This document shows, in pieces, positions 37,790 through 64,000 of a stretch of DNA of 64,000 nucleotides. Both the position numbers and the translations under genes were made by a program. The notes under the pieces were generated by a model. It was not told where the DNA came from, ran no database searches, and saw only the letters and a program-made list of their open reading frames with translations. This DNA comes from Escherichia coli. Lineage in GTDB: Bacteria; Pseudomonadota; Gammaproteobacteria; Enterobacterales; Enterobacteriaceae. Position 1 is the first letter of the stretch. Each line of letters begins with the position of its first letter. The DNA is taken from NCBI RefSeq assembly GCF_024502345.1, contig NZ_JALDNN010000001.1, one strand, 5' to 3'.

Positions 37790-38229
37790 AAAGCCATGAC
37801 CTGAAGAAAGCGCTGTGTCAATGGACGGCGATGCTGGCCCTGGTGGTAAGCGGCGCGGTTTGGGCGGCTAATGGCGTCGATTTTAGCCAGTCGCCGGAAG
37901 TATCCGGGACGCAGGAAGGGGCCATTCGGATGCCAAAAGAGCAGGATCGGATGCCGCTGAACTATGTGAATCAGCCGCCAATGATCCCGCATAGCGTTGA
38001 AGGTTATCAGGTAACGACCAATACCAACCGCTGCTTGCAGTGCCACGGTGTCGAAAGCTATCGCACCACTGGCGCGCCGCGTATCAGTCCTACTCACTTT
38101 ATGGACAGCGACGGCAAAGTGGGCGCGGAAGTGGCTCCGCGTCGTTATTTCTGTCTGCAATGTCACGTACCGCAGGCCGATACCGCGCCAATCGTGGGGA
38201 ATACCTTTACCCCATCAAATACCGAATGA
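37786..38229 (+). CDS. napB: periplasmic nitrate reductase dihaem cytochrome c subunit; final codons appear replaced at the prophage junction
   Basis: [27 protein letters not shown]... with two CxxCH motifs (CLQCH x2); ends ...NTFTPSNTE whereas the remembered reference ends ...TPSKGYGK. Confidence 0.88.
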   Translation: MKSHDLKKALCQWTAMLALVVSGAVWAANGVDFSQSPEVSGTQEGAIRMPKEQDRMPLNYVNQPPMIPHSVEGYQVTTNTNRCLQCHGVESYRTTGAPRISPTHFMDSDGKVGAEVAPRRYFCLQCHVPQADTAPIVGNTFTPSNTE

Positions 38230-38671
38230 AGTGGACTATCGAAAATTGCAGGAACTGTTCACGCGGATCGCCATCGATAAACATATTCAGCAAAAGCTTG
38301 AACATCCTCACCACCAGCTGGTGGCTACCTACCAGTCATTAAACCGCAAGTATTCAGAATTGCTGGAGGAATACAAAATCCTTCGGCGCTGCTTCTCTGT
38401 TTCCGCTCTTGTTCCTTATACCGACGTATGGACACATAAGCCTGTTCAGTTTTATCCAGGCAAACATCCATGCGAAAAACCTGCCGACATGCTGAAACAG
38501 ATCATTAGCGCCAGCAGCAGACCGGGGGATATCGTTGCCGATTTCTTTATGGGCTCTGGTTCAACTGTGAAAGCTGCAATAGAACTTGGCCGTCGGGCGA
38601 TCGGCGTAGAACTGGAGGCAGACAGGTTTATACAGACCACCGAAGAGGTGGAAAAACTGAAAAAATCATAA
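38219..38671 (+). pseudogene. 5'-truncated phage DNA N6-adenine/N4-cytosine methyltransferase (C-terminal fragment only)
   Basis: HPCEKP and DIVADFFMGSGSTVKAAIELGRRAIGVELE (FxGxG SAM-binding motif I) present; no DPPY catalytic motif and no in-frame start after the napB junction. Confidence 0.6.
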
Positions 38672-38816
38672 CGATCACCACGCTCCCCCGTTGCTGTGGT
38701 GATCACCATCTTCAGGCACCGGGAATCATCCTTAATTTTTACTTGAACATAAGAGCCCGGTTGCCTGATCCCCTTCAATCACACACAGCGCCATCCGAAC
38801 TATCGGAGGTGAGGCT

Positions 38817-39095
38817 ATGACCAGAATGAGCACCATTTACAGCAGACTTTCATATGGATCAGGAACCACGCTTGCCGGCTGCGGTGTATCAGCGAAGGCA
38901 TATGCCGAAACAGCTAAAACAGCAAAAGAGGTGTCCTGGATGTTGGCCGACAGAATTGCAGGGTTAAGCCTGAGTGACTGGGCAATTATTGTCGGTATCG
39001 CATGCACAGTTATCACCTGTGCAGTGAACTGGTATTACAGGAAAAAGGAAAGGGAGGACCGGCTTAATGGCAATGTCACCAAAGCAGAAGAATAA
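38817..39095 (+). CDS. putative holin (pinholin-like, possible dual start MTRM)
   Basis: 92-aa ORF with strong RBS ggaggtga, hydrophobic TM segment WAIIVGIACTVITCAVNWYY and charged C-terminus; directly upstream of the endolysin. Confidence 0.6.
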   Translation: MTRMSTIYSRLSYGSGTTLAGCGVSAKAYAETAKTAKEVSWMLADRIAGLSLSDWAIIVGIACTVITCAVNWYYRKKEREDRLNGNVTKAEE

Positions 39096-39615
39096 ACTGA
39101 GCGCAGCGGTCGTTGGGTTAATTCTTGCCGGGGCTTCCGCACCCGTGATTCTCGATCAGTTTCTGGATGAGAAAGAGGGTAACAGCACAACAGCGTACAA
39201 GGACGGCTCTGGTATATGGACCATTTGTCGTGGCGCTACGATGGTTGATGGCAAGCCAGTAGTTCAGGGCATGAAGCTGTCTGCTGAGAAATGTTCCAAG
39301 GTGAACGCCATAGAACGCGACAAGGCGCTGGCGTGGGTCGAGCGAAACATCAAGGTGCCACTGACCGAACCACAGAAAGCCGGGATCGCGTCTTTCTGCC
39401 CATATAACATCGGTCCCGGAAAATGTTTCCCATCTACGTTCTATAAGCGAATAAATGCTGGCGACCGTGAAGGTGCCTGTGAAGCGATCCGCTGGTGGAT
39501 AAAAGACGGTGGTCGCGATTGTCGTCTGACCAAAGGGCAGAAGAACGGTTGCTATGGTCAGGTTGAACGGCGAGACCAGGAAAGCGCGTTGACGTGCTGG
39601 GGGATAGACCAGTGA
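39067..39615 (+). CDS. SAR endolysin (T4-lysozyme-like muramidase with N-terminal signal-anchor-release domain)
   Basis: N-terminal [19 protein letters not shown] hydrophobic segment followed by the E-x8-D-x5-T catalytic triad context ([20 protein letters not shown]). Confidence 0.85.
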
Positions 39616-40127
39616 GCCTGCGCTATCAGTTCATTGTTATTTTGTTGCTGGTGGCCGTTGCATTCTTCGCGGGTAGTGTATGGAGCAGCCGCGGTTGGGA
39701 AAAGAAGTGGGCCGAGCGTGACAGCGTAGAATCATCGCAAACAGCGAACGCACAGACCGCCGCTCGCATGATTGAACAAGGGCGTATTATTGCCCGTGAT
39801 GAGGCTGTAAAAGATGCACAAGCACAAGCCGCTAAATCCGCTGCCACTGCTGCTGGCCTGTCTGCCACTGTTAACCAGCTGCGTACCGAAGCAACAAAGC
39901 TTGCCACTCGCCTGGACGCCGCAAAGCACACCGCAGATCTTGCCACTGCCGTCAGAAGCAAAACAGCCGGAGCCGACGCCGCAGTGCTCGCCGACATGCT
40001 CGGACGCCTTGCAGAAGAAGCTCGATATTATGCTGAGCGATCTGACGAAAGCTACCGGGCAGGAATGACGTGTGAGCGCATTTACGACTCAGTGAGGCAG
40101 TCAAACAACAACAGGGTTAGAAGATGA
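39594..40127 (+). CDS. i-spanin Rz
   Basis: N-terminal TM ([15 protein letters not shown]) plus coiled-coil Ala/Gln-rich periplasmic domain; overlaps the endolysin end; contains the embedded Rz1 frame. Confidence 0.75.
39814..40068 (+). CDS. o-spanin Rz1 (lipoprotein) embedded in the +1 frame of Rz
   Basis: Signal peptide with lipobox-like LLTSC, then a Pro-rich mature region; entirely inside Rz. Confidence 0.65.
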
Positions 40128-40354
40128 ACGCAGAAAACCTAAGTGAAGCGTATTACCTCAATAACGATATAAAAGAACTACAACTTCAGAAAAGCATACT
40201 GGAAAGTGGTGCCGGACTTGGTGTGACAATCCAGTCTACCTATCAGGATAACGCCTTTCTTGATGCCATACGCCCGCATGCAGTGGCTGAACTTGATCGC
40301 CGTATTGTGGAGAAGAAAAAAAACCTCTCCACTCTGGGTGTTACATTCTCTTAA
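40124..40354 (+). CDS. hypothetical small prophage protein (76 aa)
   Basis: ORF starting 4 nt before the Rz stop (translational coupling); no recognisable motif. Confidence 0.35.
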
Positions 40355-40738
40355 ATGAGAACAACAATAAAAGGTTATGTCTGCTTTGCCACATTCTGAG
40401 AGTATGAGTTTTATTTGGTAGTCAATCAGTTACTTTATTGGTTTGCTTTCCGATGGAAGATAGATGTTTCCACAGAAGGGGCAAATTAACGTTATATTGT
40501 TTTTTATTCTCGACAGACTGTGCTTTGACTGGCGGGAGCAATGAGGACAAGTACTTTTCACATGGCGTAAAGTACGCATCTTGATATCTTTGAGTATCGA
40601 CATGTTGATTGTCCTGGTGGGCGGTTAACAACCATACACCACATGTTGGCTAATAGCTTCTTTTATAACCGTTACGATGTAGTCGTTAGCCATAATCAAT
40701 CAAGCCTCGCAATAGCGGGGCTTTTTAACAACTGAGGA

Positions 40739-40942
40739 ATGAGCATTACAGTAGTTCTTACAGCTAAGCAGATTGAAGACCTGGCTGCCTTCGCAAAAGA
40801 AGATGGCCAGCCACAATATACCATCACTACCGGAACAATCCCTGAGTTCGAAGCGGATGATGGCGAGGTTATCCCTGAGTACACCGGGCTGATTGCCTAT
40901 TCCGAGTCGCTAGAGCATAGCGTTCTACAGCTCGATAACTAA
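40739..40942 (+). CDS. hypothetical small acidic prophage protein (67 aa); a degenerate paralogue lies at about 42.78-42.96 kb
   Basis: ORF with the motif F-E-ADDG-x-I-P-x-Y-TGL; a similar C-terminal fragment (FDADDGTLSPNTLGLL...) recurs at 42823-42962. Confidence 0.35.
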   Translation: MSITVVLTAKQIEDLAAFAKEDGQPQYTITTGTIPEFEADDGEVIPEYTGLIAYSESLEHSVLQLDN

Positions 40943-40989
40943 CGAATCAACATAACTTTCCATCCGCCATGACACCACAATGCTCGTAG

Positions 40990-41110
40990 ACATGCCAGGA
41001 AGCCTGGCAGAAGAAGCTCGATACCATGCTGAACGCGCTGATGAAAACTACCGAGCAGGAATGACATGTGAGCGGATTTATGAGTCCGTAAAAATACTAA
41101 CAATGAACCG
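40990..41110 (+). pseudogene. remnant 3' end of a second Rz/Rz1 spanin gene
   Basis: Translates to ...[29 protein letters not shown]..., about 80 percent identical to the Rz C-terminus at 40000-40127; no upstream gene body. Confidence 0.6.
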
Positions 41111-41129
41111 TAGAGGAAAAATAATAGCT

Positions 41130-41514
41130 CTATAAATTAAGATGTTGACGGTTTTCGTGGATAAATTTGTGAATTTTTACTATGAAGGAAATACGACTCT
41201 TCCTTGAGTCAAAATCCCTGACAACTTAGGGTGATAGATAAAGGTCTTACGCAGCATGACATAATTTTCGATTTAAGCTATTTAAATTAATTTTTAAGAT
41301 CAAAACCCACTGAGATTTACTTACAAAACTAAACCTTGCTATGTCTGGTTAATCATGCGTTAATGAATGTCTGGTTTGTAACGAATTTATCTGAAGCAGT
41401 CGCTGTAATAATTTTATTCCTTGTTCCTGTTGAGATTTCCTTGTTAGCTTTTCTCTCTGATAAATTTTTTTCGGACCATTCTGCCCAAGGGCTTACTCAA
41501 TAAAGGTAATGTTT
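41130..41514 (+). promoter_or_regulatory. long AT-rich leader/promoter region upstream of the cold-shock gene
   Basis: About 380 bp AT-rich non-coding sequence before csp, as is typical of the long 5' UTRs of cspA-family genes. Confidence 0.35.
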
Positions 41515-41727
41515 ATGTCTAATAAAATGACTGGTTTAGTTAAATGGTTTAATCCTGAAAAAGGTTTTGGTTTTATCACTCCAAAAGATGGTAGTAAAGA
41601 TGTGTTTGTTCACTTCTCTGCTATCCAGAGTAATGATTTCAAGACGTTGAATGAGAATCAGGAAGTTGAATTTAGTGTTGAACAGGGACCTAAAGGCCCC
41701 ACGGCAGTTAATGTCGTGGCTGTATAA
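41515..41727 (+). CDS. cold-shock protein, CspA family (prophage-borne, CspB/CspI-like)
   Basis: [70 protein letters not shown] with RNP1/RNP2 motifs. Confidence 0.9.
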
Positions 41728-41931
41728 GGTAACTGTTATTACTAATAATATTCACTTCAGATGTCCGTGTTGCCACGGATCTCAGTACCGAACGTCAAAC
41801 TTTGATGTTACTGAAAAAAATCCTTTCGGAGCAAAATGTATTTTTTGCAAATCAACAATGATTACATTTGATAATATTGCACTGTACATTCGTTCTGGTC
41901 AGTCTTCGTTAGAATTCAGAAAATAAATTTC

Positions 41932-41953
41932 AGGCTCCTTATGGAGCCTTTTT
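41932..41953 (+). terminator. intrinsic terminator
   Basis: aggctcc-ttat-ggagcct hairpin followed by ttttt. Confidence 0.6.
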
Positions 41954-41999
41954 TGTATGCTGAACCGACAATCTCTGTAAGAGACATCACGGTAAAATT

Positions 42000-42230
42000 A
42001 TGAAAAAAGTCATCGTTTTTTTTAATGCAGAACCAGCAGTTGTTGTAACCGTAATGAAAGGTATTACTACGATAATGCGTGAGTTTCCCAATGGGGAAAA
42101 AGCACACCTACCCGTGATGTCAGCGGGATTTCCATCTCTGACAGGAGACCATAAAATAGTTTATGTAGCCTCTGATCGTGATGTCAGTTCAGAAGAGATC
42201 CTCGAGGCAGCCTCGAAGCTTTTGAAATGA
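42000..42230 (+). CDS. YmcE-like small protein (76 aa)
   Basis: 76-aa ORF immediately upstream of a gnsA/B-like gene, the same arrangement and size as ymcE-gnsA in K-12; identity not verified. Confidence 0.4.
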   Translation: MKKVIVFFNAEPAVVVTVMKGITTIMREFPNGEKAHLPVMSAGFPSLTGDHKIVYVASDRDVSSEEILEAASKLLK

Positions 42231-42434
42231 GATCTGGTTGTTTCGTGACCGACCCGGATTTTAGTACAGTGGTTTGTGTGGTCGCGAGCTCTTTTGCATG
42301 AAGATTGTACTGCAAACTATTGATAATTGAGTCTTTCTATTCTATCTTTTAAACATATCAGCGCTTATACAAGTGCTCTACGGGGAATGTAACATGCCTG
42401 GCGTTGATACGTTAGAGATCAAGAGAGGTAAACA

Positions 42435-42608
42435 ATGAACGTCGAAGATTTAAAAAGAAAAACTGAAGCGGATATTTCTGAATTCATCACAAAAAAAATT
42501 ATTGAACTCAAAAAAAAGACAGGAAAAGAAGTTTCCGATATCCAGTTTAATGCTCGTGAAAAAATGACTGGGCTTGAAAGCTATGATATTAAAATCACAT
42601 TAATCTAA
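42435..42608 (+). CDS. GnsA/GnsB-family protein (57 aa; below the ORF-track size cutoff)
   Basis: Manual translation MNVEDLKRKTEADISEFITKKIIELKKKTGKEVSDIQFNAREKMTGLESYDIKITLI, close to remembered GnsA/GnsB sequences. Confidence 0.8.
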   Translation: MNVEDLKRKTEADISEFITKKIIELKKKTGKEVSDIQFNAREKMTGLESYDIKITLI

Positions 42609-43049
42609 TTGTTATAAGACTCAGTTCGAGTGAAAAAGCATTATCTTGAAAGGTAATGCTTTTTTATTTCTGTCATAAAATTTAGAACGTTGTCAAAGCC
42701 TTCACTTCTAACCACAGATTTTCTGCTTACCTTTTAACGGGTCCTCCTTGACGATTCTGACCATCGAGGGGCAGCAGCGGCGCGGGATTTGGAGCATTTT
42801 TGATTCTTCACGCAACCATTTCAGCATTTGATGCTGATGACGGAACACTATCCCCGAATACACTGGGTTTGTTGCATTCTCTGATTCAAAAGAACACGGT
42901 GTGCTTCAACTTGGCTGAGCAGGCATTACAGCAGACATTCACTGAGTGCCTGCGACAAAGTTAAATGGCATCAAGCATGCGATGATGATTGATTAATAAT
43001 TGAGCTATGCATGGTATAATAAGCCCCATTCATTGAAAGGTTAACCACC

Positions 43050-43214
43050 ATGTCATTTTTCGATTATGCAATGCAGCGTGTTGGGCTTGCAGCCAATACG
43101 ACTGTCATGTGCCCGATATGCGGACATAAATCCACACACTCGACCACGAAAGTACGCCAACAACAGGCGTTACTTTGCCCTAAATGTAAATCGCTGTTTG
43201 TCATTCACAGATAA
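43050..43214 (+). CDS. hypothetical small zinc-ribbon protein (about 54 aa; below track cutoff)
   Basis: Manual translation MSFFDYAMQRVGLAANTTVMCPICGHKSTHSTTKVRQQQALLCPKCKSLFVIHR with CPxCG...CPKC; followed by terminator hairpins. Confidence 0.3.
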   Translation: MSFFDYAMQRVGLAANTTVMCPICGHKSTHSTTKVRQQQALLCPKCKSLFVIHR

Positions 43215-43233
43215 CATGCGACCTGCTGAATAT

Positions 43234-43256
43234 AACCGCCTACGGGCGGTTTTTTA
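43234..43256 (+). terminator. intrinsic terminator (a second hairpin gccactttcgagtggc + T-run follows at about 43271-43293)
   Basis: ccgcc-tacg-ggcgg hairpin followed by tttttt. Confidence 0.6.
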
Positions 43257-43370
43257 TTGCCATCACAAAGGCCACTTTCGAGTGGCTTTTTTAATGGTCA
43301 TCACGACGGGTATTACAGCAGGAATTACTGAGTGCCTGCGATAATGCTCAATATTTTTATCGGAGTGAAT

Positions 43371-43559
43371 ATGCCACCGCGCACACCGAAGGCCGGCCTG
43401 AAAGGGGCGATACAAAAAAGGGAAAAAATGAAAAGACATAAGCGAAATAAAAAAGCCACCACATCTGCAAATGTGATGGCTGGCATTCGGATTAATTCAG
43501 GTTGGCTGAATAAGTTAGCCGCAGATATTACTAAAATAATTAATGAAGCATGTCCCTAA
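43371..43559 (+). CDS. hypothetical small highly basic protein (62 aa)
   Basis: ggag RBS 5 nt before the ATG; translation MPPRTPKAGLKGAIQKREKMKRHKRNKKATTSANVMAGIRINSGWLNKLAADITKIINEACP. Confidence 0.35.
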   Translation: MPPRTPKAGLKGAIQKREKMKRHKRNKKATTSANVMAGIRINSGWLNKLAADITKIINEACP

Positions 43560-43947
43560 TCTCATCTGAGATATCTCTTGGCCCTGCAGGCTGAGGCGCA
43601 ACCAACCGGGTCGGAAGTCTCTCGAAGAAACCACCACCACCATGATGATGAAAACCCCGGTTATTTTTATAACTATTGAAGTTACTGTCGGTAGTGAGAA
43701 GGATGTTGCACTGGTGCGAGCAGTCAACAACAACGACATCACCTGCATTCAGGTGCATTCGTTTGTGAAGAAATTGCATAAGTCTCCTTATCAAGAGGCA
43801 ATCAGCACTCCTCTCAAGGCTGGTACGCCAACGTCCCACCGCTGACGGGCTGAGCCATTACCTTACCCAGACTCAACGATAAGTAACATCCTGATATTCA
43901 GACAGTAACTGTAATCGATAATGCTGAAGAATAGGCAGTAAATACAG

Positions 43948-44595
43948 GTGACTGATATGGCAACACTGAAGGATTTATCAAACCAGTTAAAGCAACTGCA
44001 AAAGCAAATCCCGTTTGCCACAGCTCAGGCGATGACAAAAGTTGTACGCCAGATTGAGTTGGCTCAGAAGACGGCATTCGAACGACATCTGGAGAGCCCC
44101 ACGCCGTTTACCGTTAAATCAGTTGGTTCGGTGGCGGCAAGAAAGAACAATCTGACCGCAAAGGTTTTTGTCCGTGATACCGCTGCTGGTTATCTGGAAC
44201 CATTCGAGTTTGGCGGAGAGCACAAGCTCAATAGCCAGGCTCTATTAAATCCCAAGAACGTTAAGCTAAACAAATACGGCAACATGCCGCGTAATAAGCT
44301 CTCACAGCTTAAAGCAAAGGAAAATGTATTCGTAGGTGAGGTTGATGGCGTTAACGCTGTCTGGCAGCGTAAGAAGCCGATGAAAGCTAAGAAGCGACGG
44401 GCCAAACGTTCCGCTAACGGGACGCGAAGACCGAAACGCAAACAGCGTTCTCCAAAGCTTTTGATCCGGTTTGGTGATGCGCTACCTGTGACTCCAGTGC
44501 TGGGGTATATGGATAGGGCCCGTACCATGGCGAACGCACTGCTACCGTCTGCTTTAAATCAGGCGATAGCAGAAGCCATCAGGACGGCAAAATAA
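43948..44595 (+). CDS. hypothetical prophage protein (215 aa) with Lys/Arg-rich segment
   Basis: ORF with a central basic tract KKPMKAKKRRAKRSANGTRRPKRKQRSPK; no recognisable catalytic motif. Confidence 0.45.
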   Translation: MTDMATLKDLSNQLKQLQKQIPFATAQAMTKVVRQIELAQKTAFERHLESPTPFTVKSVGSVAARKNNLTAKVFVRDTAAGYLEPFEFGGEHKLNSQALLNPKNVKLNKYGNMPRNKLSQLKAKENVFVGEVDGVNAVWQRKKPMKAKKRRAKRSANGTRRPKRKQRSPKLLIRFGDALPVTPVLGYMDRARTMANALLPSALNQAIAEAIRTAK

Positions 44596-44605
44596 AAGCA
44601 GTAAC

Positions 44606-45109
44606 TTATAAGTTAATTTCGCAAGCTTTTATGAAGCTGTTTACTGCAGTTGTCGATCCAGAAACATTGGCTGACATGGAATGCTGGTTTCCGCCATCCT
44701 TTGTTTGCACACCAACTAACACTTTGGATTTCGCCCCCTGAAGCTGCTTAAGCACTGTTTTCAGTTGGTCCGTGTCATCCGATTGAATCTGGAGGCTCTG
44801 AACATTACGTCTTGAAAGGGTAGCATCGAGCTTCACTGCGGTATTCCCGTCGACCTTCATTATCAGGTCCATTGGTACCTCTGATAGTGATTCGGTGCTT
44901 TTATCCATTTCAACGTATGCCGCCGATAGCTTTTCTTTAGTGCAGTCAAACACAATGGCGCCATTGTCGGATGAAACCTCGCCAAGCATCATTGCTTTCT
45001 TACCACCAGAGAAAAGGTCATCTTCAGTATTAGTTACCCACTGGGCATGAGCAATTGGTGATGCCAGCACTGCGGCTACGAAAGTTATTTTGATTATATT
45101 GTTACCCAT
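44606..45109 (-). CDS. secreted/periplasmic protein, moron-like, opposite strand to the phage late genes
   Basis: Signal peptide MGNNIIKITFVAAVLASPIAHA then a soluble domain; convergent with the neighbouring phage genes (Bor-like placement, but no lipobox). Confidence 0.5.
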   Translation of the reverse strand: MGNNIIKITFVAAVLASPIAHAQWVTNTEDDLFSGGKKAMMLGEVSSDNGAIVFDCTKEKLSAAYVEMDKSTESLSEVPMDLIMKVDGNTAVKLDATLSRRNVQSLQIQSDDTDQLKTVLKQLQGAKSKVLVGVQTKDGGNQHSMSANVSGSTTAVNSFIKACEINL

Positions 45110-45253
45110 TACATTCTCCTTGTATTGAATAGGAATAATCATAGTCGGAGCGAATGGTCGAAGCCATTAAAAAAATGGGTCCTTCCTGAGACTTTTGTAA
45201 GGCACGGGCATTGCGCGCCGCGGTGTTTTCCTAGCTACAACTTTCAGATTTGT

Positions 45254-53331: not shown

Positions 53332-53335
53332 TGAC

Positions 53336-56313: not shown

Positions 56314-56741
56314 ATGGCTGAGATTGAACGCGTTAAAACCATTCCATTAACCGTAGCGCTGGATGATGCTGCGGAGAAGACCACTTATACGCAGCTGGAG
56401 CTGAAAGCACCCACGCTAAGCCAGGCTGAGCAGTTTTACGAGAAACAGGCTGCGTCAACGTCGCTCGCGGCGATGCGCCTGCTTATTGCGCTGGTTTCCG
56501 GTACGCGTGAAAGCGTACTGCAGCCGATGGATTTTCTCGACTTCCGTAAGTGTGAGGAGTATCTGCTCAGTTTTTTGACCTGGAAGCCCTGACAACCTGG
56601 CAGGAAATGGCCGCTGACGTCACCTTCTATTTCCGCTGGTCTGAGGACAGGGCGTGGGGAATGACCCGCGCCCGGCTGAAATGGTGGGTGGCGCAGGCAT
56701 CCCGGATAAACAAGCTTAGGAAACCTGAAGACGATGAGTAA
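56314..56741 (+). CDS. tail assembly chaperone with programmed -1 frameshift (short form ends 56592; extended form to 56741)
   Basis: Slippery heptamer T-TTT-TTG at 56571-56577 in frame X-XXY-YYZ; the -1 frame stays open for 56 codons and ends 5 nt inside the tape-measure ORF. Confidence 0.65.
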
Positions 56742-58662
56742 TTCTTTTGATTTTGAGCTGGTGGCCAGCGACCAGGTTAGCGAGGCTATAGACCGCATTA
56801 ATGAGGCTGTCCGTGACCTGGAGCCGAAGCTAGATAAAACTAAAGAAGGGCTCAAGTTAGGCGGTCAGGAAACAGCCGACGGACTGAGCGGTTTTATTTC
56901 TCGCCTCGAGAATATGTCGAAGAGCGCGCGGGATAACGTGCAGTTTATTGGCGACATGGTTCCCCCACTGAAAATGGTGGGGGAGCTCACGGGGAAGATG
57001 GGGGCGCTGGGGTTAGCCGGTGCTGCCGGCTACGGACTGAAACAGGTCGCTTATGGATTTCGGGAGGCATCCCGTCAGGCCTATAATCTTGATGTCTCGG
57101 CAAAAAATGCGGGAATGCGCGTTGACGATTTTACCCGACTTTCCGGGGCAATGCGTATTCTTGGGGCAGACAGCGAGAGCGCTAATGCATCAATAGAAGG
57201 TATTTTCAAAGCATTCAATGAGGCTGCCAGTGGTAAAAACGAGGGGGTTATGGCAGCGATGGCGCAAATTGGTGCTCAAATCCAAAAAAACAGCGATGGT
57301 TCAGTAAATACCCTTAAAACACTGGAGTCTATCGCAAAAATTTTTCCAACCTTGCGACCTGAACAGCAGAAGTCCGCCGCTGATGCACTTGGGCTGACGC
57401 CCGAATTGCTGGCGCTAATGCGTGACGGTGAGCGCATGAAAAAGCTGCTGGCGAAATCGGATGAATTTGGTCTGACTGTGGATCCGGCACTAAATCAGCA
57501 ATTGAGTGAAGTGAACGGCACTATGAATGAGCTCAGCGCATCCTGGGATGGTCTGTGGCAACGTTCAAAAAACAAGGCACTTAAGACCATTCTTTCGGAT
57601 GGTTCAGTCAAAGACGGCCTTGAAGGTGTTACCGATCTGTTCACTAATGGTGATTTTACTGGGCTGTCTCATGCTCTCGGTTTTATCAACAGCAATGATG
57701 CTGAGAAACTACGGCGCATTCAGAACGATAAGGAACTTTATAACAGCTTACCCCGCAGTGAACGTGGGCAGGTTGACGCGGGTTTCATGACTGATGCTGT
57801 AAGAAAGCGGTACGATGCGAATTACCGCGCGACCGATTCTGCGATTCAATTGCAGAATGACTTATCCGCTATCAGCCAGCCACAATCCAACGTTGCACGC
57901 GGCAATGTTCCTTACGGGGAAACAAGGAATAACGCAATTGGCTTCAGAAATAATAATCCCGGTAATTTGAGGGCTGCAGCAAACGCAACGGGTAAAAATG
58001 GCGGATTTTCTACCTTTGCGAATGATGCCGACGGAAGAGCTGCAATGGCGAGACAGCTGATGTTGTATGGTGACAGGGGGAATAATACTCTGGATGGGAT
58101 TATTCATACCTATGCTCCGCAATCAGAGAATAATACTCGTGCATATATTGATTCCGTATCAAAAAGTACTGGGTTTGGAGCGCAGCAGCGTATTAATCTC
58201 CACGATCCTGATGTGTTAAAAACACTGATGGCAGCAATGATTAAACATGAAAGCGGAGCACAGCCGTATACCGAAAATGAACTGAGCGATTCTGTCCGGA
58301 CGGCCATCATTGACGATCGGTGGAAGGGTTTACGTAGCCCGGAAGTTCTGGCTCAACAGCGATATGATATTATCTCAGGTTCGCAAACTGGAAATCGTGA
58401 CTCCAGCACTCTTAGTAACCCGAGTGATGAAACTGATATTCTCTCAGGCTCGCAGAACAGAAATCGGGAATCCATCATTCTGAGTGATACGGGTAAGAAA
58501 AGTGATGAAAGTGTACTCGGCGACAATCTGGCTAAGTCTCTTAAAGAGGCAATGTCAGAACAACCACTTAAGCTCGAAATCACAATGGTTAATGATAAGG
58601 GTGAGCGAAAAACCTATAATGCGGAAAATAATGGCAGAATAACAACGGCCATGAATTACTGA
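56734..58662 (+). CDS. tail tape measure protein
   Basis: 642-aa ORF directly after the frameshifted chaperone pair; helical Ala/Leu-rich N-terminal part. Confidence 0.7.
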   Translation: MSNSFDFELVASDQVSEAIDRINEAVRDLEPKLDKTKEGLKLGGQETADGLSGFISRLENMSKSARDNVQFIGDMVPPLKMVGELTGKMGALGLAGAAGYGLKQVAYGFREASRQAYNLDVSAKNAGMRVDDFTRLSGAMRILGADSESANASIEGIFKAFNEAASGKNEGVMAAMAQIGAQIQKNSDGSVNTLKTLESIAKIFPTLRPEQQKSAADALGLTPELLALMRDGERMKKLLAKSDEFGLTVDPALNQQLSEVNGTMNELSASWDGLWQRSKNKALKTILSDGSVKDGLEGVTDLFTNGDFTGLSHALGFINSNDAEKLRRIQNDKELYNSLPRSERGQVDAGFMTDAVRKRYDANYRATDSAIQLQNDLSAISQPQSNVARGNVPYGETRNNAIGFRNNNPGNLRAAANATGKNGGFSTFANDADGRAAMARQLMLYGDRGNNTLDGIIHTYAPQSENNTRAYIDSVSKSTGFGAQQRINLHDPDVLKTLMAAMIKHESGAQPYTENELSDSVRTAIIDDRWKGLRSPEVLAQQRYDIISGSQTGNRDSSTLSNPSDETDILSGSQNRNRESIILSDTGKKSDESVLGDNLAKSLKEAMSEQPLKLEITMVNDKGERKTYNAENNGRITTAMNY

Positions 58663-58990: not shown

Positions 58991-59002
58991 ATTTCCGGAG
59001 GC

Positions 59003-60409
59003 GTGATGCCGTCAATTATCCAGGACGCAATAACTTCTCTTTTGGGGGGAGATACCAGCGATGACTGGCAGGGGCAGTTACGGCCCAGCTCATTCAGAGG
59101 TGTGCCATTTGCAATTGTTGCTGAGGAAGGGAGCCACGGCCGACGCCAGGCGGTACATGAATATCCCTACCGTGATACAGCCTGGATAGAGGATATCGGG
59201 CGGGCAACACGGCGATTTGTTATTCGCGGTTTCTTGATCCAGAACAGCCAGGTTTACGGCGGCGGCGATGCTATCACGCAGCGCCAGTCACTGATTGAAG
59301 CCTGTGAACAAAAAGGTAGCGGTACGCTTGTCCATCCGACACTGGGCGAATTAACGGTTTCCATCCCTGAGAATGGTTTGCGTATTTCCGGTTCGATGGA
59401 GAACGGGCGAGTATTTGAATTTACCCTGATGGCAATTGAATCAGGGCTTAAAGTGTTTGCTGTCACGGGCAGTACCGTTGCAGGCGCCACGGTGAAAACC
59501 AACTATCTGAAACTGGTCAGCACTGCTGTGCTGAGCACGATTGCCAGAGTTAAGAGTGAAATCCGCGGTGTCACACAGGCTATAAACACCATCAGAGGCA
59601 CGGTCACGTTCTGGACTAACATGGTTGACAGCACCATCAGTCAGGTCACGAATCTCAGCAATGTCCTGAACTCCACGTTCGGGAATACCCGGTACGGACG
59701 TTACAGTAAAGGCTCTGTGGGCGGTAGTTCCTCTGCTGTTGCTGGCAAATCGTCAGTTGCTGATGTGGATGATGAGAGAGCACTGGCTGACAAGGTAACA
59801 GCCCAGTCGGTAATGGACCGGAAAAATGTTACCGACAGGTCGAGCCAGCTTAGCAGCTCCAACACACCTGATGAGTTTGTCCAGGGCGTCGCCGACGTGG
59901 TAAACGCAATTCTTAACAGCGCCGGCAGCGTTAATGACCGAATCACAGCGCTGGAAAAACTGGCTAATTCAATCAGCACGGAGTACCAGCAGTCCGACAG
60001 CAGCAAAGCGATTTCGGCGACCATGAACACGCTGATTGTTGTGCTATGTACTGGTGCCATGACCAGTGCCGCTGCGGACTCCAGACCAGCCAGTACAGAC
60101 GAGGCAGAAGAGTTAACTCAACGAGTTTCTGTGCAACTTGATACGGCGCTGGTTCTGGCTGGAGACCGCGCGGACGATGATATGTATAACGCGCTTCTCG
60201 CCGTCAGATCGGCATTCCTTTCTACGATGAGTGAGCGTGCTTCTGGTCTGAGCGAGCTTCTGCAGGTTACTACCGCTCAGCCGCTTCCGGCGCTGACGCT
60301 GGCAAACCGATTATACCAGGATGCCACCCGTGCAGATGAACTGGTACAGGAAGCGCGCGTACCGCATCCGGCGTTTATGCCGACAACCATGAAGGTACTG
60401 AGGCAATGA
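59003..60409 (+). CDS. tail/baseplate protein (Mu gpN DNA-circulation-like position)
   Basis: 468-aa ORF, first gene after the tape measure. Confidence 0.5.
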   Translation: MMPSIIQDAITSLLGGDTSDDWQGQLRPSSFRGVPFAIVAEEGSHGRRQAVHEYPYRDTAWIEDIGRATRRFVIRGFLIQNSQVYGGGDAITQRQSLIEACEQKGSGTLVHPTLGELTVSIPENGLRISGSMENGRVFEFTLMAIESGLKVFAVTGSTVAGATVKTNYLKLVSTAVLSTIARVKSEIRGVTQAINTIRGTVTFWTNMVDSTISQVTNLSNVLNSTFGNTRYGRYSKGSVGGSSSAVAGKSSVADVDDERALADKVTAQSVMDRKNVTDRSSQLSSSNTPDEFVQGVADVVNAILNSAGSVNDRITALEKLANSISTEYQQSDSSKAISATMNTLIVVLCTGAMTSAAADSRPASTDEAEELTQRVSVQLDTALVLAGDRADDDMYNALLAVRSAFLSTMSERASGLSELLQVTTAQPLPALTLANRLYQDATRADELVQEARVPHPAFMPTTMKVLRQ

Positions 60410-61491
60410 ATGCAGACAGCGATCTGGATGTTGTTTCTTTGACGGTCGACGGCAAAATCATCGAGGGGTGGGATTCTGTCCGGGTAACGCGGGGTATTGA
60501 GCGTTTTCCCTCTGATTTCGATCTTGGGCTAATGGATTACTTCCCTGGCAACGAAGATCGTCAACTCGTTGAAGAGGGAATGTCTTGTGAAGTTCGTATC
60601 GGAGATGATCTGACACTGACGGGATATGTTGATGACTGGGAACCCGCACTATCGCGCTCCCGCCATGAGGTCCGCGCCACGGGCAGGAGCAGATGTCAGG
60701 ACCTGGTGGATTGCTCAGCCGAGTGGCCTAACAACGTCATCAATGCCAGTAATGCGCTTGAAATTGCTTCTCGCCTGGCATCCTACTACGGCATCACCGT
60801 AACCACGGATGTTGATGAACTTGTGAAGGTACCCCAGTTCACTCTGAACTGGGGTGAGTCTCCGCAAGAAGTCATCGATCGGGTGGCCAGATGGTCTGCT
60901 CTGCTTTACTACGATCAGCCCGATGGAAACCTGTTACTGACCCGGGTGGGAACACGTCGTGCGGCAAGTGGGATAGCCGAAGGGGTAAATGTCGAGCAGG
61001 CATACTACCGCAAATCGATGGCTGACAGGTTTTCAGATTATGTCGGTGTATCAATGAGCGTTTCTCCAATTGCAGGGTATTCGCCTGATACGGCCTATGA
61101 CGCTGTGACTCTGGCAACGGCGAGAGATCCGGAGGCCGCCCGCATGCGGTACCGAAAACATATATCGATTGTGGAAAGTACCCTGATGGCTACTCAACAG
61201 GCACAAAGTGCGATCGACTGGGAAATGAACCGGCGGTACGGACGTTCAAAACAGCTCTCGGTAACCATCGATTCCTGGCGGGATAAAGACGGGAAACTGT
61301 GGGAACCAAACACATTGATCCCCGTTGATCTTCCCACCTTACGGTTGCCGAAGACTGAATTGCTACTGGCAGAAGTCACCTATATGCGCGATGACTACGG
61401 CACCCATGCACGCATGACGCTGATGCCGCCTGAAGCATTCTCCGTTCAGCCATATGCCTTCTACCAGAACCTGGCGGGATTCAATACATGA
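60406..61491 (+). CDS. baseplate hub/tail protein (Mu gpP-like position)
   Basis: 361-aa ORF overlapping neighbouring stop codons. Confidence 0.5.
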   Translation: MNADSDLDVVSLTVDGKIIEGWDSVRVTRGIERFPSDFDLGLMDYFPGNEDRQLVEEGMSCEVRIGDDLTLTGYVDDWEPALSRSRHEVRATGRSRCQDLVDCSAEWPNNVINASNALEIASRLASYYGITVTTDVDELVKVPQFTLNWGESPQEVIDRVARWSALLYYDQPDGNLLLTRVGTRRAASGIAEGVNVEQAYYRKSMADRFSDYVGVSMSVSPIAGYSPDTAYDAVTLATARDPEAARMRYRKHISIVESTLMATQQAQSAIDWEMNRRYGRSKQLSVTIDSWRDKDGKLWEPNTLIPVDLPTLRLPKTELLLAEVTYMRDDYGTHARMTLMPPEAFSVQPYAFYQNLAGFNT

Positions 61492-62072
61492 AGCAACTAT
61501 TTAAACATGCAGCGACCAGGATCGCCGGCATGCTGGGGATTGGCCGGATCACGGCTATGAAAGATGGTGGGGTGGTGCAGTCTATCCAGTACCAGACTCC
61601 GCTGGAGGTGGCCAGCGCTCCGCGGATGGCAGAATTTGGCTTTTCATCCGGCCTGCCGTCAGGGACTGACGTGGTTCTGGCTTTTATTGGCGGTGATCGT
61701 TCCAGCGCGGTGGTAATTGCGTCCAACCATCAGGGGTTCCGTCATACAGGCCTGAAAGCGGGCGAAACGGTCATGTATAACCAGTGGGGCCTTAATATTC
61801 TCCTGACGGAGAAGGGGATCTTCCTGGATGCAAAGGGCCAGAATGTTGAGGTCAATAACGCCACTAACGTGACCATCAATGCCAGCCAGGGGATCCTTGC
61901 AAATACCCCGATCCTGAGGTGCACGGGTGACATTGTTGATAACTGTGAAACCAATACCCGAACACTGAAAGAGCTGCGGGATGCACATAATGACCATGAT
62001 CATGTGGTTAAAAATGCCCAGAGTGGCAATGACAATATCCGCAGCCAAAAAACAGAGGATCAGGTGACATGA
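61488..62072 (+). CDS. baseplate spike/assembly protein (gpV-like)
   Basis: 194-aa ORF by size and position. Confidence 0.5.
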   Translation: MKQLFKHAATRIAGMLGIGRITAMKDGGVVQSIQYQTPLEVASAPRMAEFGFSSGLPSGTDVVLAFIGGDRSSAVVIASNHQGFRHTGLKAGETVMYNQWGLNILLTEKGIFLDAKGQNVEVNNATNVTINASQGILANTPILRCTGDIVDNCETNTRTLKELRDAHNDHDHVVKNAQSGNDNIRSQKTEDQVT

Positions 62073-62506
62073 GTGACATCGCTTCATTCTGGAATGTGGA
62101 TGAGATGTTTGCTGACTGGCAGAAAGGGCTGGGTGAACTCACCACGGGGAACGATTTACAGACTGCAATACTGGACAGCCTGTTTACCGACAGGCTGGCG
62201 CGCGCTGACGATGATTATGAGGATAGCGATCGCCGCGGCTGGTGGGGGGATTCCGGGGAGGAATCCCAACTGGGATCCCGGCTGTGGCTGCTACGGCGGA
62301 AAAAACTGACCCCGGATGTAGCAAAAAAAGCGGAGGAATACTCGAGTGAAGCGCTCAACTGGTTAAAGGTTGATGGCGTTGTCAGCGAGGTTATTCCTGT
62401 TGCAAGGATCGTCCTGCCTGACCGGCTCAATCTCATTATCCGCTATCAGGCACCGGGGAAGGACTGGCAGGAATTCAGGTTTTACTGGATATGGGAGCAA
62501 CGTTAA
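62069..62506 (+). CDS. baseplate wedge protein (GPW/gp25-like)
   Basis: 145-aa ORF upstream of the J-like gene. Confidence 0.5.
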   Translation: MSDIASFWNVDEMFADWQKGLGELTTGNDLQTAILDSLFTDRLARADDDYEDSDRRGWWGDSGEESQLGSRLWLLRRKKLTPDVAKKAEEYSSEALNWLKVDGVVSEVIPVARIVLPDRLNLIIRYQAPGKDWQEFRFYWIWEQR

Positions 62507-62507
62507 T

Positions 62508-63650
62508 ATGCCGTTTAAACGACCGACGCTGAGCGAACTCCGCGACGGAAACCGGAAATTTATGCAGGCGGAGCTTGAGGATGTTGGTGCGCTCCTGCGC
62601 TTCGCGAACCTGAAGGTACTGGCTGACATGGATGCGGGGATGGGGCATCTGCATTACGCCTACCTTGACTATATTGCCCTGCAGACAAACCCGTTTACCT
62701 CTACCGATGAGTATCTCGCCGGGTGGATGGCCCTTAAGCAGGTATTCAGAAAACCAGCTGCAGCGGCGAAGTCGCCTGCGGTACAGGCTAGTGGCAGTGT
62801 TGACTGTATTATCCCTGTTGGCTCGATCATTAACCGCGGGGACGGATACCAGTACCGGACGGATGCAGATCTTAAAATTCAGGCAGATGGATTTGGTATC
62901 GTCGCGGTGACGGCCATACTGCCGGATATTACCAGTGATGTAACGGGTGGAGGCGCGCGCGGTAACGCTGATGCCGGGACCATAATGACCCTGGACGCGA
63001 ATATTGCTGGCGTGGATCCACAGGTAACGTTACTGTCCGCTGCGACCGGCGGAGCCGATATTGAAACGGAAGAGGATTTTCGCAGTCGTGGCTTGCTGGC
63101 ATGGCAGAATCCGCCTCAGGGTGGAAGCGACGCCGATTATAAAAAATGGGCGCTTGAGGTTTCGGGCGTCACCCGCGCGTGGGTAAAGCGGCGTCTGAAC
63201 GGGGCCGGGACCGTTGGCGTGTATATCATGTGTGATCGGAATGACAATGGTGGGTTTCCGGTCGGTACCGACGGAATATCCCAACTTGAGGACTGGGGGG
63301 CTGTTAAAGCCACCGGAGACCAGCTCGCTGTCGCCGACCACATCTATCCGCAGCAGACAGACACTGCCATTGTTTTCGTATGTTCCCCGATCAAGAAAGT
63401 CATCAATATTGAAATCTCTGGGATCAAAAATGCCGACAGCACCACAGTTCAGGGGATAAAAGACGCGCTGACGGCGCTGTTTTTTGATGAAGCTAACCCT
63501 GATGGTTCCGGGAAAGTTTACCTCTCTGATATTAACGGGAGTATCGGCGGTGTTAGCGGCACGACGGGCTATATTCTTAACTCTCCGACGGCCAATATCA
63601 CCTTTGCTGTTGGCGAAATTCCGGTGCTTGGCGGGGTGAATTTTGTATGA
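62508..63650 (+). CDS. baseplate J-like protein
   Basis: About 380-aa ORF from the internal Met MPFKRPTLSELRDG; size and position match baseplate J. Confidence 0.55.
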   Translation: MPFKRPTLSELRDGNRKFMQAELEDVGALLRFANLKVLADMDAGMGHLHYAYLDYIALQTNPFTSTDEYLAGWMALKQVFRKPAAAAKSPAVQASGSVDCIIPVGSIINRGDGYQYRTDADLKIQADGFGIVAVTAILPDITSDVTGGGARGNADAGTIMTLDANIAGVDPQVTLLSAATGGADIETEEDFRSRGLLAWQNPPQGGSDADYKKWALEVSGVTRAWVKRRLNGAGTVGVYIMCDRNDNGGFPVGTDGISQLEDWGAVKATGDQLAVADHIYPQQTDTAIVFVCSPIKKVINIEISGIKNADSTTVQGIKDALTALFFDEANPDGSGKVYLSDINGSIGGVSGTTGYILNSPTANITFAVGEIPVLGGVNFV

Positions 63651-64000
63651 GCCTCTTTTCAAAAAATGATTATGCCGGTGCGCTTGGTGCGCTGCTACCG
63701 ACGGGCAGGGCGTGGCCCCGGTCGCAAAGAACGGTACAGGCTGCGGTATTACGGGCACTGGGCAGCGCGTTTCAGCGTTCTGACAACGATGCGCAAAGCC
63801 TGATTACTGGTGCTTTTCCCCCTACAGCGACGGTAATGTTGTCAGAATGGGAAAGCTCTCTGGGGTTACCAGATGATTGTGCGATTGGTGAATCCGGTGG
63901 CGTCAGCGATCGCCAGCGCGCCGTGGTGGCAAAGTTAATCAGCACCGGCGGCCTGAACCGCGATTATTACATCCGGGTGGCTGCAGCTCTTGGTTATACC
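63647..64000 (+). CDS. tail/baseplate protein (YmfQ / Mu gp48-like), 3' end outside window
   Basis: ATGA overlap with the preceding gene; open frame MSLFSKNDYAGALGALLPTGRAWPRSQ... runs to the window end. Confidence 0.5.
   Translation, partial: MSLFSKNDYAGALGALLPTGRAWPRSQRTVQAAVLRALGSAFQRSDNDAQSLITGAFPPTATVMLSEWESSLGLPDDCAIGESGGVSDRQRAVVAKLISTGGLNRDYYIRVAAALGYT

Follow-up and report, generated by a model that had tools for sequence, protein, structure and literature searches.

The probable late half of a ΦNP/BZS1-type prophage, with lambda-type head and Mu-type tail genes, joined to napB in Escherichia coli

Temperate phages of E. coli that combine a lambda-type head with a Mu-type tail are common and have already been described. 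The true exemplars of the combination, and the closest isolated phages to the element reported here, are Citrobacter ΦNP (OR565852; a C. rodentium prophage) and Serratia vB_SspM_BZS1 (MT843275; hereafter BZS1), not SfV. Both are temperate myoviruses by electron microscopy (ΦNP, PMC6456863; BZS1, PMC7556043), and 12-nt 5' cohesive ends have been determined experimentally for BZS1 (PMC7556043). Their shared late gene order starts with a methylase (ΦNP) or lysis genes, a 215-aa protein, cosN GCATTGCGCGCC, and terS, runs on through gpA-type terL, W, B, C, scaffold, D, E, FII-like, terminator-like, and DUF2635 genes, and then takes in sheath, tube, frameshifted chaperone, tape measure, and gp43–48.

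The window (the whole 64-kb stretch of E. coli DNA analysed) contains, at 38220–64000, a lysis cassette, a low-GC cargo region, a cos site, 10 lambda-type packaging/head genes, and 12 Mu-type contractile-tail genes, and the reading frames of all its late genes (lysis, head, and tail) are intact. In our reading (probability roughly 0.7), this region comes from a temperate, lambdoid myovirus prophage of the ΦNP/BZS1 type, of which the late half remains after a deletion of ~30 kb took away the left arm. The element is ordinary and probably defective; what is new, going by the alignment, is its left end (~38217), a junction that is not an attachment site.

From terS to gp48, the window and both exemplars have collinear homologues with 33–93% aa identity, preceded by the same cosN; the major capsid protein (MCP) is 88% identical to that of ΦNP and 92% to that of BZS1, and the sheath 72% and 64%. 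The terminase subunits, however, are only 33–49% identical to those of ΦNP and BZS1, whose integration sites (ssrA and tRNA-Lys), early regions, and cargo are unlike those of the window element, and the window copy, unlike either phage, has no left arm. The ICTV yardstick for a genus is ~70% nucleotide similarity across the genome; megablast of 45400–64000 found no similarity of that level to ΦNP or BZS1, and against 50,697 phage records just 6% of the query aligned (the MCP gene alone), with an identity of 79%.

Much closer DNA matches come from E. coli prophages, among which the structural module is very widespread. A structural block 99.3–99.8% identical, with full-length proteins, occurs at tRNA-Pro/yejM (ECONIH4, NZ_CP026399; a complete prophage of 45.6 kb) and at kch/yciI (NCTC9040 and KMi029), the identity starting 32 bp upstream of cosN and running to the window end. 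For ECONIH4, DNA identity is 99.81% over 45176–64000, and 18 of 18 structural proteins are full length and 98.9–100% identical. All three prophages still have int and Q as well as their immunity and replication genes, and the last part of each is an invertible tail-fibre segment accompanied by a recombinase of the Gin/Pin type.

Packaging and head genes

The packaging and head features are as follows.

45208..45219, + strand: cosN GCATTGCGCGCC, identical to the BZS1 12-nt 5' cohesive end
45253..45400, no strand: cosB-like array in which ATGTCCCA occurs seven times, in either orientation, after cosN and before the terS start codon
45400..45969, + strand: terminase small subunit (TerS), 189 aa (PHROG 57, E 4.6e-36)
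45911..48034, + strand: terminase large subunit (TerL), lambda gpA family (Pfam GpA_ATPase 3.8e-63, GpA_nuclease 2.9e-78)
48043..48306, + strand: gpW-like head–tail adaptor (PHROG 75; identical homologues named 'gpW family' by PGAP)
48306..49943, + strand: portal, lambda gpB type (PHROG 21; lambda B, E 2e-66)
49940..50806, + strand: S49 prohead protease, lambda gpC type (PHROG 53)
50808..51398, + strand: candidate scaffold, at the position of lambda Nu3
51398..51802, + strand: head decoration protein, lambda gpD family (Pfam HDPD 3.9e-20)
51900..52949, + strand: MCP, lambda gpE family (PHROG 29)
52951..53695, + strand: two head-completion genes, for a 126-aa protein at the FI position and a 119-aa FII-like head-closure protein (53336–53695; PHROG 82 (Hc1), with Pfam Phage_attach on homologues)

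The initial annotation had described a mosaic of a lambda-like packaging/head module and a Mu-like contractile tail, and the genes that it listed are each found in place, on the + strand, with E-values far beyond chance. Its head assignment is borne out by the GpA domains of TerL, the HDPD decoration protein, and the gpE-like capsid. BLAST of the head genes gives matches in lambda, at 29% identity for TerL (with 92% of its length aligned), 31% for the portal, 36% for the protease, and 30% for the capsid, but none in Mu or SfV. The reverse holds for the tail genes, which have matches in Mu (37% identity for the sheath) and SfV (41%) and none in lambda. Gene types B, C, D, and E follow one another in lambda order, together with gpW and FII connectors, and the capsid protein also matches PDB 7vi9 (a 341-residue major capsid protein; E 1.4e-32), which we take to be lambda gpE; proteins near-identical to it bear Pfam Phage_cap_E.

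Lambda (Nu1-A-W-B-C-Nu3-D-E-FI-FII, with cos) shares with the window its gene order and the families of A, W, B, C, D, E, and FII, as well as packaging by cos with a 12-nt overhang, here read from sequence. The likeness has limits: identity is only 29–36%, the tail is not lambda's, and the window protease and scaffold are separate genes whereas those of lambda are nested. The scaffold role of 50808..51398 is suggested by gene position, and its product has weak PHROG matches with protease families, in their C-terminal (Nu3) part. The small terminase subunit had been called Nu1; it does stand at the Nu1 position, but the family name does not hold, as the protein has no Pfam match and no tblastn match to lambda Nu1, its sole match being PHROG 57 'terminase small subunit'. 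It is 33–34% identical to the TerS proteins of ΦNP and BZS1.

Both ΦNP and the NCTC9040 prophage have the cosN 12-mer GCATTGCGCGCC upstream of terS as well, and its exact match to the BZS1 overhang predicts cleavage here to 12-nt 5' cohesive ends. All seven matches to ATGTCCCA in the 64-kb window fall within the 142 bp of the array, as compared to 1.9 expected for the whole window; these repeats may be binding sites for the small terminase subunit.

The contractile tail and the working of an intact relative

The tail genes, all on the + strand, begin at the joint with the head module.

53692..54237, + strand: candidate tail terminator, 181 aa
54241..56312, + strand: DUF2635 (Mu gp38-like), sheath, and tube genes
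54435–55937, + strand: tail sheath, 500 aa (PHROG E 4.8e-187; Pfam Phage_sheath_1 and _1C)
55941–56312, + strand: tail tube, 123 aa
56314–56592, + strand: tail assembly chaperone, 92 aa, with a predicted -1 frameshift extension
56734..58662, + strand: tape measure, 642 aa (PHROG 2276 and 873)
59006..64000, + strand: Mu-type baseplate genes, namely the six that follow
59006–60409, + strand: gp43/DNA_circ_N
60406–61491, + strand: gp44/P
61488–62072, + strand: gp45
62069–62506, + strand: gp46
62508–63650, + strand: gp47/Baseplate_J (J-like)
63647 onwards, + strand: gp48-like, cut by the window end

The window therefore stops within the tail module, inside the gp48-like gene, and the right end of the element lies beyond it, as had been proposed. 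PHROG matches and Pfam labels (precomputed, and taken from near-identical proteins) agree with a myovirus tail of the Mu type. In particular, the 500-aa protein proposed as the sheath is a full-length homologue of a solved one (PDB 9khy, the phage Mu terminator/trunk structure; E 4.9e-94) and is 37% identical to the product of Mu gene L over 99% of its length. The order gp38-L-M-chaperone-tape measure-gp43-gp44-gp45-gp46-gp47-gp48 is that of Mu, whose tail module (gp37–gp48, L, M, N, and P) has 12 genes in the same order as the window. BLAST matches to Mu gp38, sheath (L), gp43, gp44, gp46, gp47, and gp48 have 30–39% identity, and the window tube, chaperone, tape measure, and terminator candidate have no BLAST match in Mu. 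The gp47-like protein matches PDB 9ki1_H (baseplate protein gp47; E 1e-29), which is taken to be from Mu on account of its entry set and 360-residue length. The tape measure contains a lytic-transglycosylase-like segment (residues ~393–541).

The 181-aa candidate terminator does not resemble Mu gp37 or SfV orf9 in sequence; its AlphaFold model is of moderate confidence (pLDDT 63), and the top Foldseek matches are almost all terminators (lambda gpU, T5 p142, and Mu 9khy_1). The chaperone, which had been annotated as frameshifted, indeed contains a slippery heptamer (T_TTT_TTG at 56571–56577) followed by an open -1 frame, and both heptamer and extension are conserved in ΦNP, BZS1, and SfV; a programmed -1 frameshift would extend the protein to 56741.

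We considered a Mu-like phage in the sense of a whole virus (Muvirus-like) and rejected it: there is a cos site, the head genes find no match in Mu, and the complete relatives have lambdoid early regions and a tyrosine integrase. Unlike Mu, the element has no transposase and no headful packaging, and head and lifestyle are lambdoid. The initial annotation had also likened the architecture to that of SfV, and here only part of the comparison stands. The SfV group (SfV, SfI, SfII, SfIV, ST64B, and phiP27) does share the lambdoid layout and the Mu-like contractile tail; sheath identity to the group is 40–42%, and other SfV tail proteins are 25–50% identical. Yet the SfV head is of the HK97 type (577-aa TerL, 424-aa portal, 200-aa protease, 409-aa MCP), has no W, D, or E, and gives no match to these head genes, so the element falls outside that group. 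No gtr cargo is visible within the window (its attP-side position lies beyond 64000), and the relatives at proL or yciI have an invertase or DinI, not gtr, at that position next to attP.

The working of an intact relative can be sketched from what is established for the lambda and Mu families. Late transcription, antiterminated by Q, would read through the lysis genes. Terminase (the small subunit with the gpA-type large subunit) would bind the repeat array beside cosN and nick cosN to leave the 12-nt 5' cohesive ends, and DNA would be pumped through the gpB-type portal into a gpE-type capsid built on the Nu3-like scaffold and matured by the S49 protease, with trimers of the gpD-type decoration protein to stabilise it. 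After closure by the gpW-like and FII-like proteins, the head would dock on a separately assembled Mu-type contractile tail made with the terminator, sheath, tube, -1-frameshift chaperone, tape measure with its transglycosylase segment, and gp43–48 baseplate. For the window element, we directly observed the gene content, the homologies, the match of the cos sequence, and the frameshift signal.

Lysis and cargo genes and the left junction

Upstream of cosN, the element contains the following features.

38217..38220, no strand: junction of the napB 3' end with a phage DNA methyltransferase gene (three-way alignment)
38231..38671, + strand: N6/N4-type DNA methyltransferase, 3' ~40% of the gene, truncated and out of frame with napB
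38817..40127, + strand: lysis cassette, with holin (38817–39095), lysozyme (39067–39615), and Rz (39594–40127, with an embedded candidate Rz1)
40124..45142, no strand: cargo region of low GC (40–42%), which includes two YnfU-family zinc proteins and the four features that follow
40980–41135: 3' fragment of a second Rz
41370–41786: CspG-like cold-shock gene with a cspA thermoregulator leader
43948–44595: conserved 215-aa 'minor tail' protein, 71–76% identical to the ΦNP and BZS1 proteins at the same position
44606–45142, - strand: 178-aa protein with no function assigned

The holin/lysin genes have 88% nucleotide identity to their mEp237 counterparts, and Pfam Phage_holin_2_3 and Phage_lysozyme are found on identical or near-identical proteins. 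The methyltransferase fragment is 83% identical at the aa level to the ΦNP dam gene and 76% to SfV orf48; SfV has this same methyltransferase between Q and holin.

The start that had been placed at 38220 is where homology to chromosomal napB ends and phage homology begins (the latter at 38216 in the alignment). What begins there is not a whole prophage: it lacks the left arm, and it starts at an illegitimate junction. By alignment to a full-length methyltransferase gene (L003 19404–20456), the 3' end of napB is joined to nucleotide ~598 of a 1053-nt gene through 3 bp of microhomology (CAA), a mid-gene breakpoint rather than an attachment site, which gives a variant NapB C-terminus (...TPSNTE, then stop). 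To the left of 38217 the window is plain chromosomal E. coli DNA, yfaL to napB, and hence holds no integrase, att site, repressor, replication, or Q gene.

ECONIH4 suggests how the junction may have arisen. There the order is nap-ccm-narP-yejO-attL-int...Q-methylase-lysis-head-tail-invertase-tRNA-Pro-yejM, in the same orientation as in the window, and a 49-nt repeat, which corresponds to the tRNA-Pro 3' end, flanks the prophage. As napB is only ~10.6 kb from this att site, a single deletion yields exactly the junction observed. The element would most likely have been integrated at tRNA-Pro (proL)/yejM as in ECONIH4, a placement drawn from this comparison, the right end lying beyond the window. 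One illegitimate deletion of ~30 kb would then have taken out napC, ccmA–H, narP, yejO, attL, int, and xis, the genes for immunity and replication, Q, the promoter for late transcription, and the methyltransferase gene's 5' part, leaving a prophage presumably unable to excise, replicate, or turn on its own late genes. That the late genes are silent is suggested by the missing Q and by terminator-like hairpins at 41932–41949 and 43234–43251. The presence of the same structural module in prophages at kch/yciI is an observation against the proL site.

Other readings of the junction

The napB::methyltransferase junction occurs in none of 5,426 complete E. coli genomes, and the proteins that it would create were not found in a large protein collection. 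Such uniqueness would fit an assembly chimera, with a complete prophage located elsewhere, a reading that we consider unlikely. Chimeric joins usually arise in repeats, but the two sides share only 3 bp here and are non-repetitive at the breakpoint; moreover, napB lies 10.6 kb from a proven att site of this prophage, in the orientation that a simple deletion predicts, which would be improbable for a random misjoin.

Quite unlikely, too, is an inversion of ~1 Mb that broke napB at one end and, at the other, the methyltransferase gene of a prophage at kch/yciI–tonB, oriented oppositely to nap. It would give the same napB'::'methylase-lysis-head-tail order, and the int-to-Q arm and napC-ccm would then still exist elsewhere in the genome. 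Many E. coli genomes do have the structural module at kch/yciI, at 99.3% identity, presumably (from K-12 map gene orders) in the orientation relative to nap that is opposite to that of the proL site. Against this, sites ~1 Mb apart would have to recombine illegitimately over 3 bp and the inversion would be asymmetric about the terminus, an event much rarer than a 30-kb deletion beside a known att site; besides, the best DNA match of the structural block is to the proL-located prophage.

The intact late frames, and a window that stops before the right end of the element, would also suit a complete inducible prophage with its integrase and early genes beyond the window, but we regard this as very improbable: every complete relative examined has int and the early region upstream of Q-methylase-lysis, with tail fibres last, and the left boundary cuts a gene mid-way instead of falling at an att repeat. 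Just as hard to credit is a domesticated, particle-producing (tailocin-like or GTA-like) element kept by the host after loss of its mobility genes, even with structural and lysis frames intact despite the lost left arm, because near-identity (99.8%) to a complete prophage indicates recent truncation rather than long conservation, no other genome searched has the junction, no regulator is present to drive expression, and the tailocins known to us have no head genes.

The deletion reading leaves room for variation in the part that was lost. The lysis and cargo part of the window (38.2–45.2 kb) differs from that of ECONIH4, as it does from those of NCTC9040 and KMi029, and the lost left arm may have been unlike that of ECONIH4.

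Head and tail modules

The genes named in the initial annotation all lie on the + strand at the positions assigned to them, as judged by PHROG profiles and by Pfam labels precomputed on identical or near-identical proteins. On the head side, the profiles identify a terminase small subunit, a large subunit (TerL; E 2.8e-233), an Ad1/gpW adaptor, a portal, an S49 head protease, a decoration protein, a major head protein and a head-closure protein, and the precomputed labels are Phage_cap_E and Phage_attach. On the tail side, they identify a sheath (500 aa, E 4.8e-187), a tube (123 aa), a tail assembly protein, a tape measure, and baseplate hub and wedge proteins; the labels here are DUF2635, Phage_sheath_1/1C, Tail_tube, Phage_TAC_7, DNA_circ_N and GpP-like, with Phage_Mu_Gp45, GP46, Baseplate_J and Phage_Mu_Gp48 on the baseplate genes. 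We also compared the genes one by one, by tblastn, with those of lambda, Mu, the Shigella phage SfV, the Citrobacter phage ΦNP and the Serratia phage vB_SspM_BZS1 (BZS1). Among the first three phages, the sequence matches split the modules cleanly, head genes matching lambda only and tail genes matching Mu and SfV.

Matches of window genes in lambda, Mu and SfV (tblastn)
TerL: lambda 29% (gpA); Mu none; SfV none
portal: lambda 31% (gpB); Mu none; SfV none
protease: lambda 36% (gpC); Mu none; SfV none
capsid: lambda 30% (gpE); Mu none; SfV none
sheath: lambda none; Mu 37%; SfV 41%
gp38-like (DUF2635): lambda none; Mu 39%; SfV 50%
gp43-like: lambda none; Mu 32%; SfV 40%
gp44-like: lambda none; Mu 30%; SfV 32%
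gp46-like: lambda none; Mu 39%; SfV 44%
gp47-like: lambda none; Mu 30%; SfV 32%
gp48-like: lambda none; Mu 38%; SfV 35%

The proposed likeness of terminase and capsid to lambda gpA and gpE is borne out by these values, by the Pfam domains GpA_ATPase and GpA_nuclease on TerL, and by the match of the capsid protein to PDB 7vi9 (E 1.4e-32), presumably lambda gpE given its length of 341 residues. The decoration protein is assigned to Pfam HDPD, the lambda gpD family, and the head proteins, when examined for non-lambdoid affinity, fell into lambda families instead. The small terminase subunit had been called Nu1, but shows no recognisable similarity to it; sequence searches of the PDB matched neither TerL nor the FII-like protein. 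The 500-aa protein, tested for a sheath fold, matches PDB 9khy, the phage Mu terminator/trunk structure (E 4.9e-94), and the gp47-like or J-like baseplate protein (62508-63650) matches PDB 9ki1_H, “baseplate protein gp47”, presumably that of Mu given the entry set and the 360-residue length. The tail is indeed of the Mu-like contractile kind, its sheath and its gp38-, gp43-, gp44-, gp46-, gp47- and gp48-like genes all matching Mu at 30-39%.

The frameshift predicted for the tail chaperone is also real. The 92-aa chaperone ORF carries a T_TTT_TTG heptamer at 56571-56577, from which the -1 frame runs on as far as 56741, into the start of the tape-measure gene; heptamer and extension are both kept in ΦNP, BZS1 and SfV despite chaperone identity of about 50% or less. 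Residues ~393-541 of the tape measure (57910-58356) form a lytic-transglycosylase-like segment (PHROG 873, 7182), which suggests that this protein digests peptidoglycan while the tail penetrates.

Two genes meet at the joint between the modules:
53336-53695: lambda-type FII-like gene
53692-54237: 181-aa ORF lacking a Pfam family, publicly annotated only as “ATP-binding protein”

A sequence search of the PDB gave no match to the 181-aa protein, and sequence and profile comparisons of its family with the positional equivalents Mu gp37 and SfV orf9 were negative. Its AlphaFold model is of moderate confidence only (pLDDT 63, pTM 0.59). Because the Foldseek matches of this model are almost uniformly tail terminators (lambda gpU, T5 p142, R4C terminator, Mu 9khy_1 and T4 gp15), we provisionally assign the protein as the tail terminator, which would offer the docking surface for the lambda-type head-completion proteins.

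Relatives, cos site and spread

At the nucleotide level, megablast against isolated phages gave the structural block essentially no matches, and relatives emerged at the protein level. The closest isolated phages are ΦNP (capsid 88%, sheath 72% identity) and BZS1 (capsid 92%, sheath 64%), both with collinear homologues of the entire terS-to-gp48 block and both with contractile tails seen by electron microscopy (PMC6456863; PMC7556043). Because these phages carry the block and such tails, the combination of head and tail has already been described in isolated phages; modular phage evolution is known to join lambda-type heads to Mu-type contractile tails, and the case is of little biological import. 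SfV, which had been offered as the exemplar, fits only in part. It shares with the element a Mu-like tail, a lambdoid layout and a methyltransferase gene between Q and holin, and nothing more, whereas its head module is HK97-type (TerL 577 aa, portal 424 aa, protease 200 aa, capsid 409 aa; W, D and E absent) and does not match the window head genes. The original observation is thus confirmed and its core interpretation supported, with corrections on SfV and Nu1. The practical gains are the corrected analogy, exact coordinates for the cos site, the repeat array beside it and the chaperone frameshift, a probable tail-terminator role for the 181-aa joint protein, and the flagging of a probable truncation.

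The 12-nt 5' overhang of BZS1 has been determined by experiment as GCATTGCGCGCC (PMC7556043). This sequence is matched exactly by 45208-45219 of the window, which lies 180 bp ahead of terS, and it recurs at the equivalent position in ΦNP and in the prophage of E. coli NCTC9040. Counting both orientations, the 64 kb contain seven copies of ATGTCCCA, and every one of them sits between cosN and the terS start codon (45253-45400); 1.9 copies would be expected in the whole window. By analogy with lambda cosB, these repeats may be cosB sites that bind the small terminase subunit; to our knowledge, such candidates are undescribed for the ΦNP/BZS1-type phage group.

Near-identical copies of the module are public and annotated in many E. 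coli genomes. The structural block was matched in 177 of 5,426 complete E. coli genomes (about 40 of them at an identity of at least 95%), and 5,193 blocks of the assembly collection list a J-like protein of exactly this sequence. Complete prophages with the block occupy two sites, kch/yciI-tonB (E. coli NCTC9040 and KMi029, the latter with RecE/RecT in its early region) and tRNA-Pro/yejM (E. coli ECONIH4). The module is also found at tRNA-Pro/yejM in L007 (CP043597.1) and L009 (CP017990.1), locus coordinates 1-14200, with 97.5% nucleotide identity and an identical J-like protein; because the chromosome flanks of these two are just 77-80% identical to E. coli, the sequence comparison indicates that the tail module has recently spread between genera. 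Between the tape-measure and gp43-like genes (58694-58942), an in-frame stop in the window leaves a 48-aa ORF; an 82-aa ORF is called at this position in L007, L009 and NCTC9040, and ECONIH4 has no annotated gene there.

Lysis and cargo region

The region from lysis genes to cos (40.1-45.2 kb) is low in GC and is typical lambdoid cargo. Its features include the following:
40430-40603 (-) and 43050-43214 (+): two YnfU-family zinc-binding small proteins (NCBIfam NF038384, 76 and 73 bits)
40980-41135: second, partial copy of the Rz C-terminus (3' fragment), ~850 bp downstream of the intact Rz gene
41509-41727: CspG-like cold-shock gene with the full cspA thermoregulator 5' leader (Rfam RF01766, 142.8 bits; whole unit 41370-41786)
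41651-41926 (+): third CxxC-rich small ORF
44606-45142 (-): 178-aa protein just upstream of cos (PHROG 19473, unknown function, E 4.9e-99)

The lysis cassette forms a mosaic unit of its own: an identical 92-aa holin occurs in many unrelated lambdoid prophages, none of which adjoins nap. The second Rz fragment looks like the scar of an older recombination between lysis cassettes. A 215-aa cargo protein is kept at the matching position in ΦNP and BZS1. In a PADLOC scan of the cargo ORFs we found no credible defence system, the sole notable match being the cold-shock domain. The N-terminus of the 178-aa protein is hydrophobic and, by eye, signal-peptide-like.

The napB junction and probable truncation

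Ordinary chromosomal genes fill the window's left 38 kb (yfaL, gyrA, rcsCBD, ompC, apbE, ada, alkB, yojI, mqo, eco and napFDAGHB, named by comparison with the annotation of E. coli O125ac:H10 strain C 236-04A), and the first 22 kb is 100% identical to that strain's chromosome. The napA coordinate offset implies that the window has 114 bp more than strain C 236-04A somewhere within 22000-33751. In that strain the nap operon runs on into napC, followed by ccmA-H, narP, yejO, tRNA-Pro and yejM. In the window, nap homology ends ~17 nt short of the napB end, at roughly 38217, and phage sequence follows: napB is fused to a phage methyltransferase gene (1053 nt) at nt ~598 of the latter, with 3 bp common to both sides.
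37786-38229: napB, with variant C-terminus ...TPSNTE* (variant end at 38217-38229)

NapB has this variant C-terminus because the nap operon is broken at the junction; exact-protein look-ups of the variant and of two versions of the truncated methyltransferase ORF returned zero matches. There is no phage-like sequence upstream of the junction within the window, and no tRNA gene in its 64 kb, hence no att-site tRNA in view. This left boundary is not an att site.

ECONIH4 carries a complete relative of 45.6 kb, with 49 nt of the tRNA-Pro 3' end repeated at its borders, in the order nap-ccm-narP-yejO-attL-int-xis-early-Q-methyltransferase-lysis-cos-head-tail-fibres-invertase-DinI-tRNA-Pro-yejM and in the window's orientation. 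Identity to this prophage is 99.81% over window 45176-64000, and each of the 18 structural proteins is complete and 98.9-100% identical to its counterpart there. A single deletion from napB into the methyltransferase gene of such a prophage would give the observed junction, removing about 10.6-12 kb of host DNA and about 19.7 kb of prophage. We favour this deletion, with a probability of about 0.65-0.7, because napB lies so near a proven att site for ECONIH4-type prophages, in the predicted orientation. The copies at kch/yciI bring in an alternative, an illegitimate inversion of ~1 Mb involving a copy located there; two others are that the napB::methyltransferase junction is an assembly chimera, and that the element is a complete prophage of non-canonical layout. 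The right end, which bears on the choice between the deletion and these three, lies outside the window. A simple inversion at the proL (tRNA-Pro) site is rejected, since the 5' part of the methyltransferase gene would then follow napB as its reverse complement, unlike the junction observed.

The element is flagged as probably truncated, although prophage callers would score it “intact” from gene content. Without int/xis, repressor, replication genes, Q and the late promoter, it would be unable to excise, replicate or activate its late operon, and transcripts reading through from nap would run into terminator-like hairpins at 41932-41949 and 43234-43251. The intact reading frames are most simply explained by a recent truncation. 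The full head and packaging module rules out a tailocin. We think it quite improbable that the truncated element is a stably retained, cos-bearing and complete lysis, head and tail gene set which a co-resident lambdoid phage activates through Q in trans or by recombination, gaining virion parts or mosaic late regions, with the deletion also marking a natural E. coli lineage without ccm, NapC and NarP.

The truncating junction is the sole feature specific to the window and is of strain-level interest. A genuine deletion would mean that the strain has lost napC, ccmA-H (the ccm operon), narP and also yejO; c-type cytochrome maturation and periplasmic nitrate respiration would be abolished, a strain-level phenotype that adds no new principle. 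The nap region of ECONIH4 has been damaged independently, napA being split by an IS4321-family element and yejO by IS2 (1982-3304 and 15601-16829 of locus L018).
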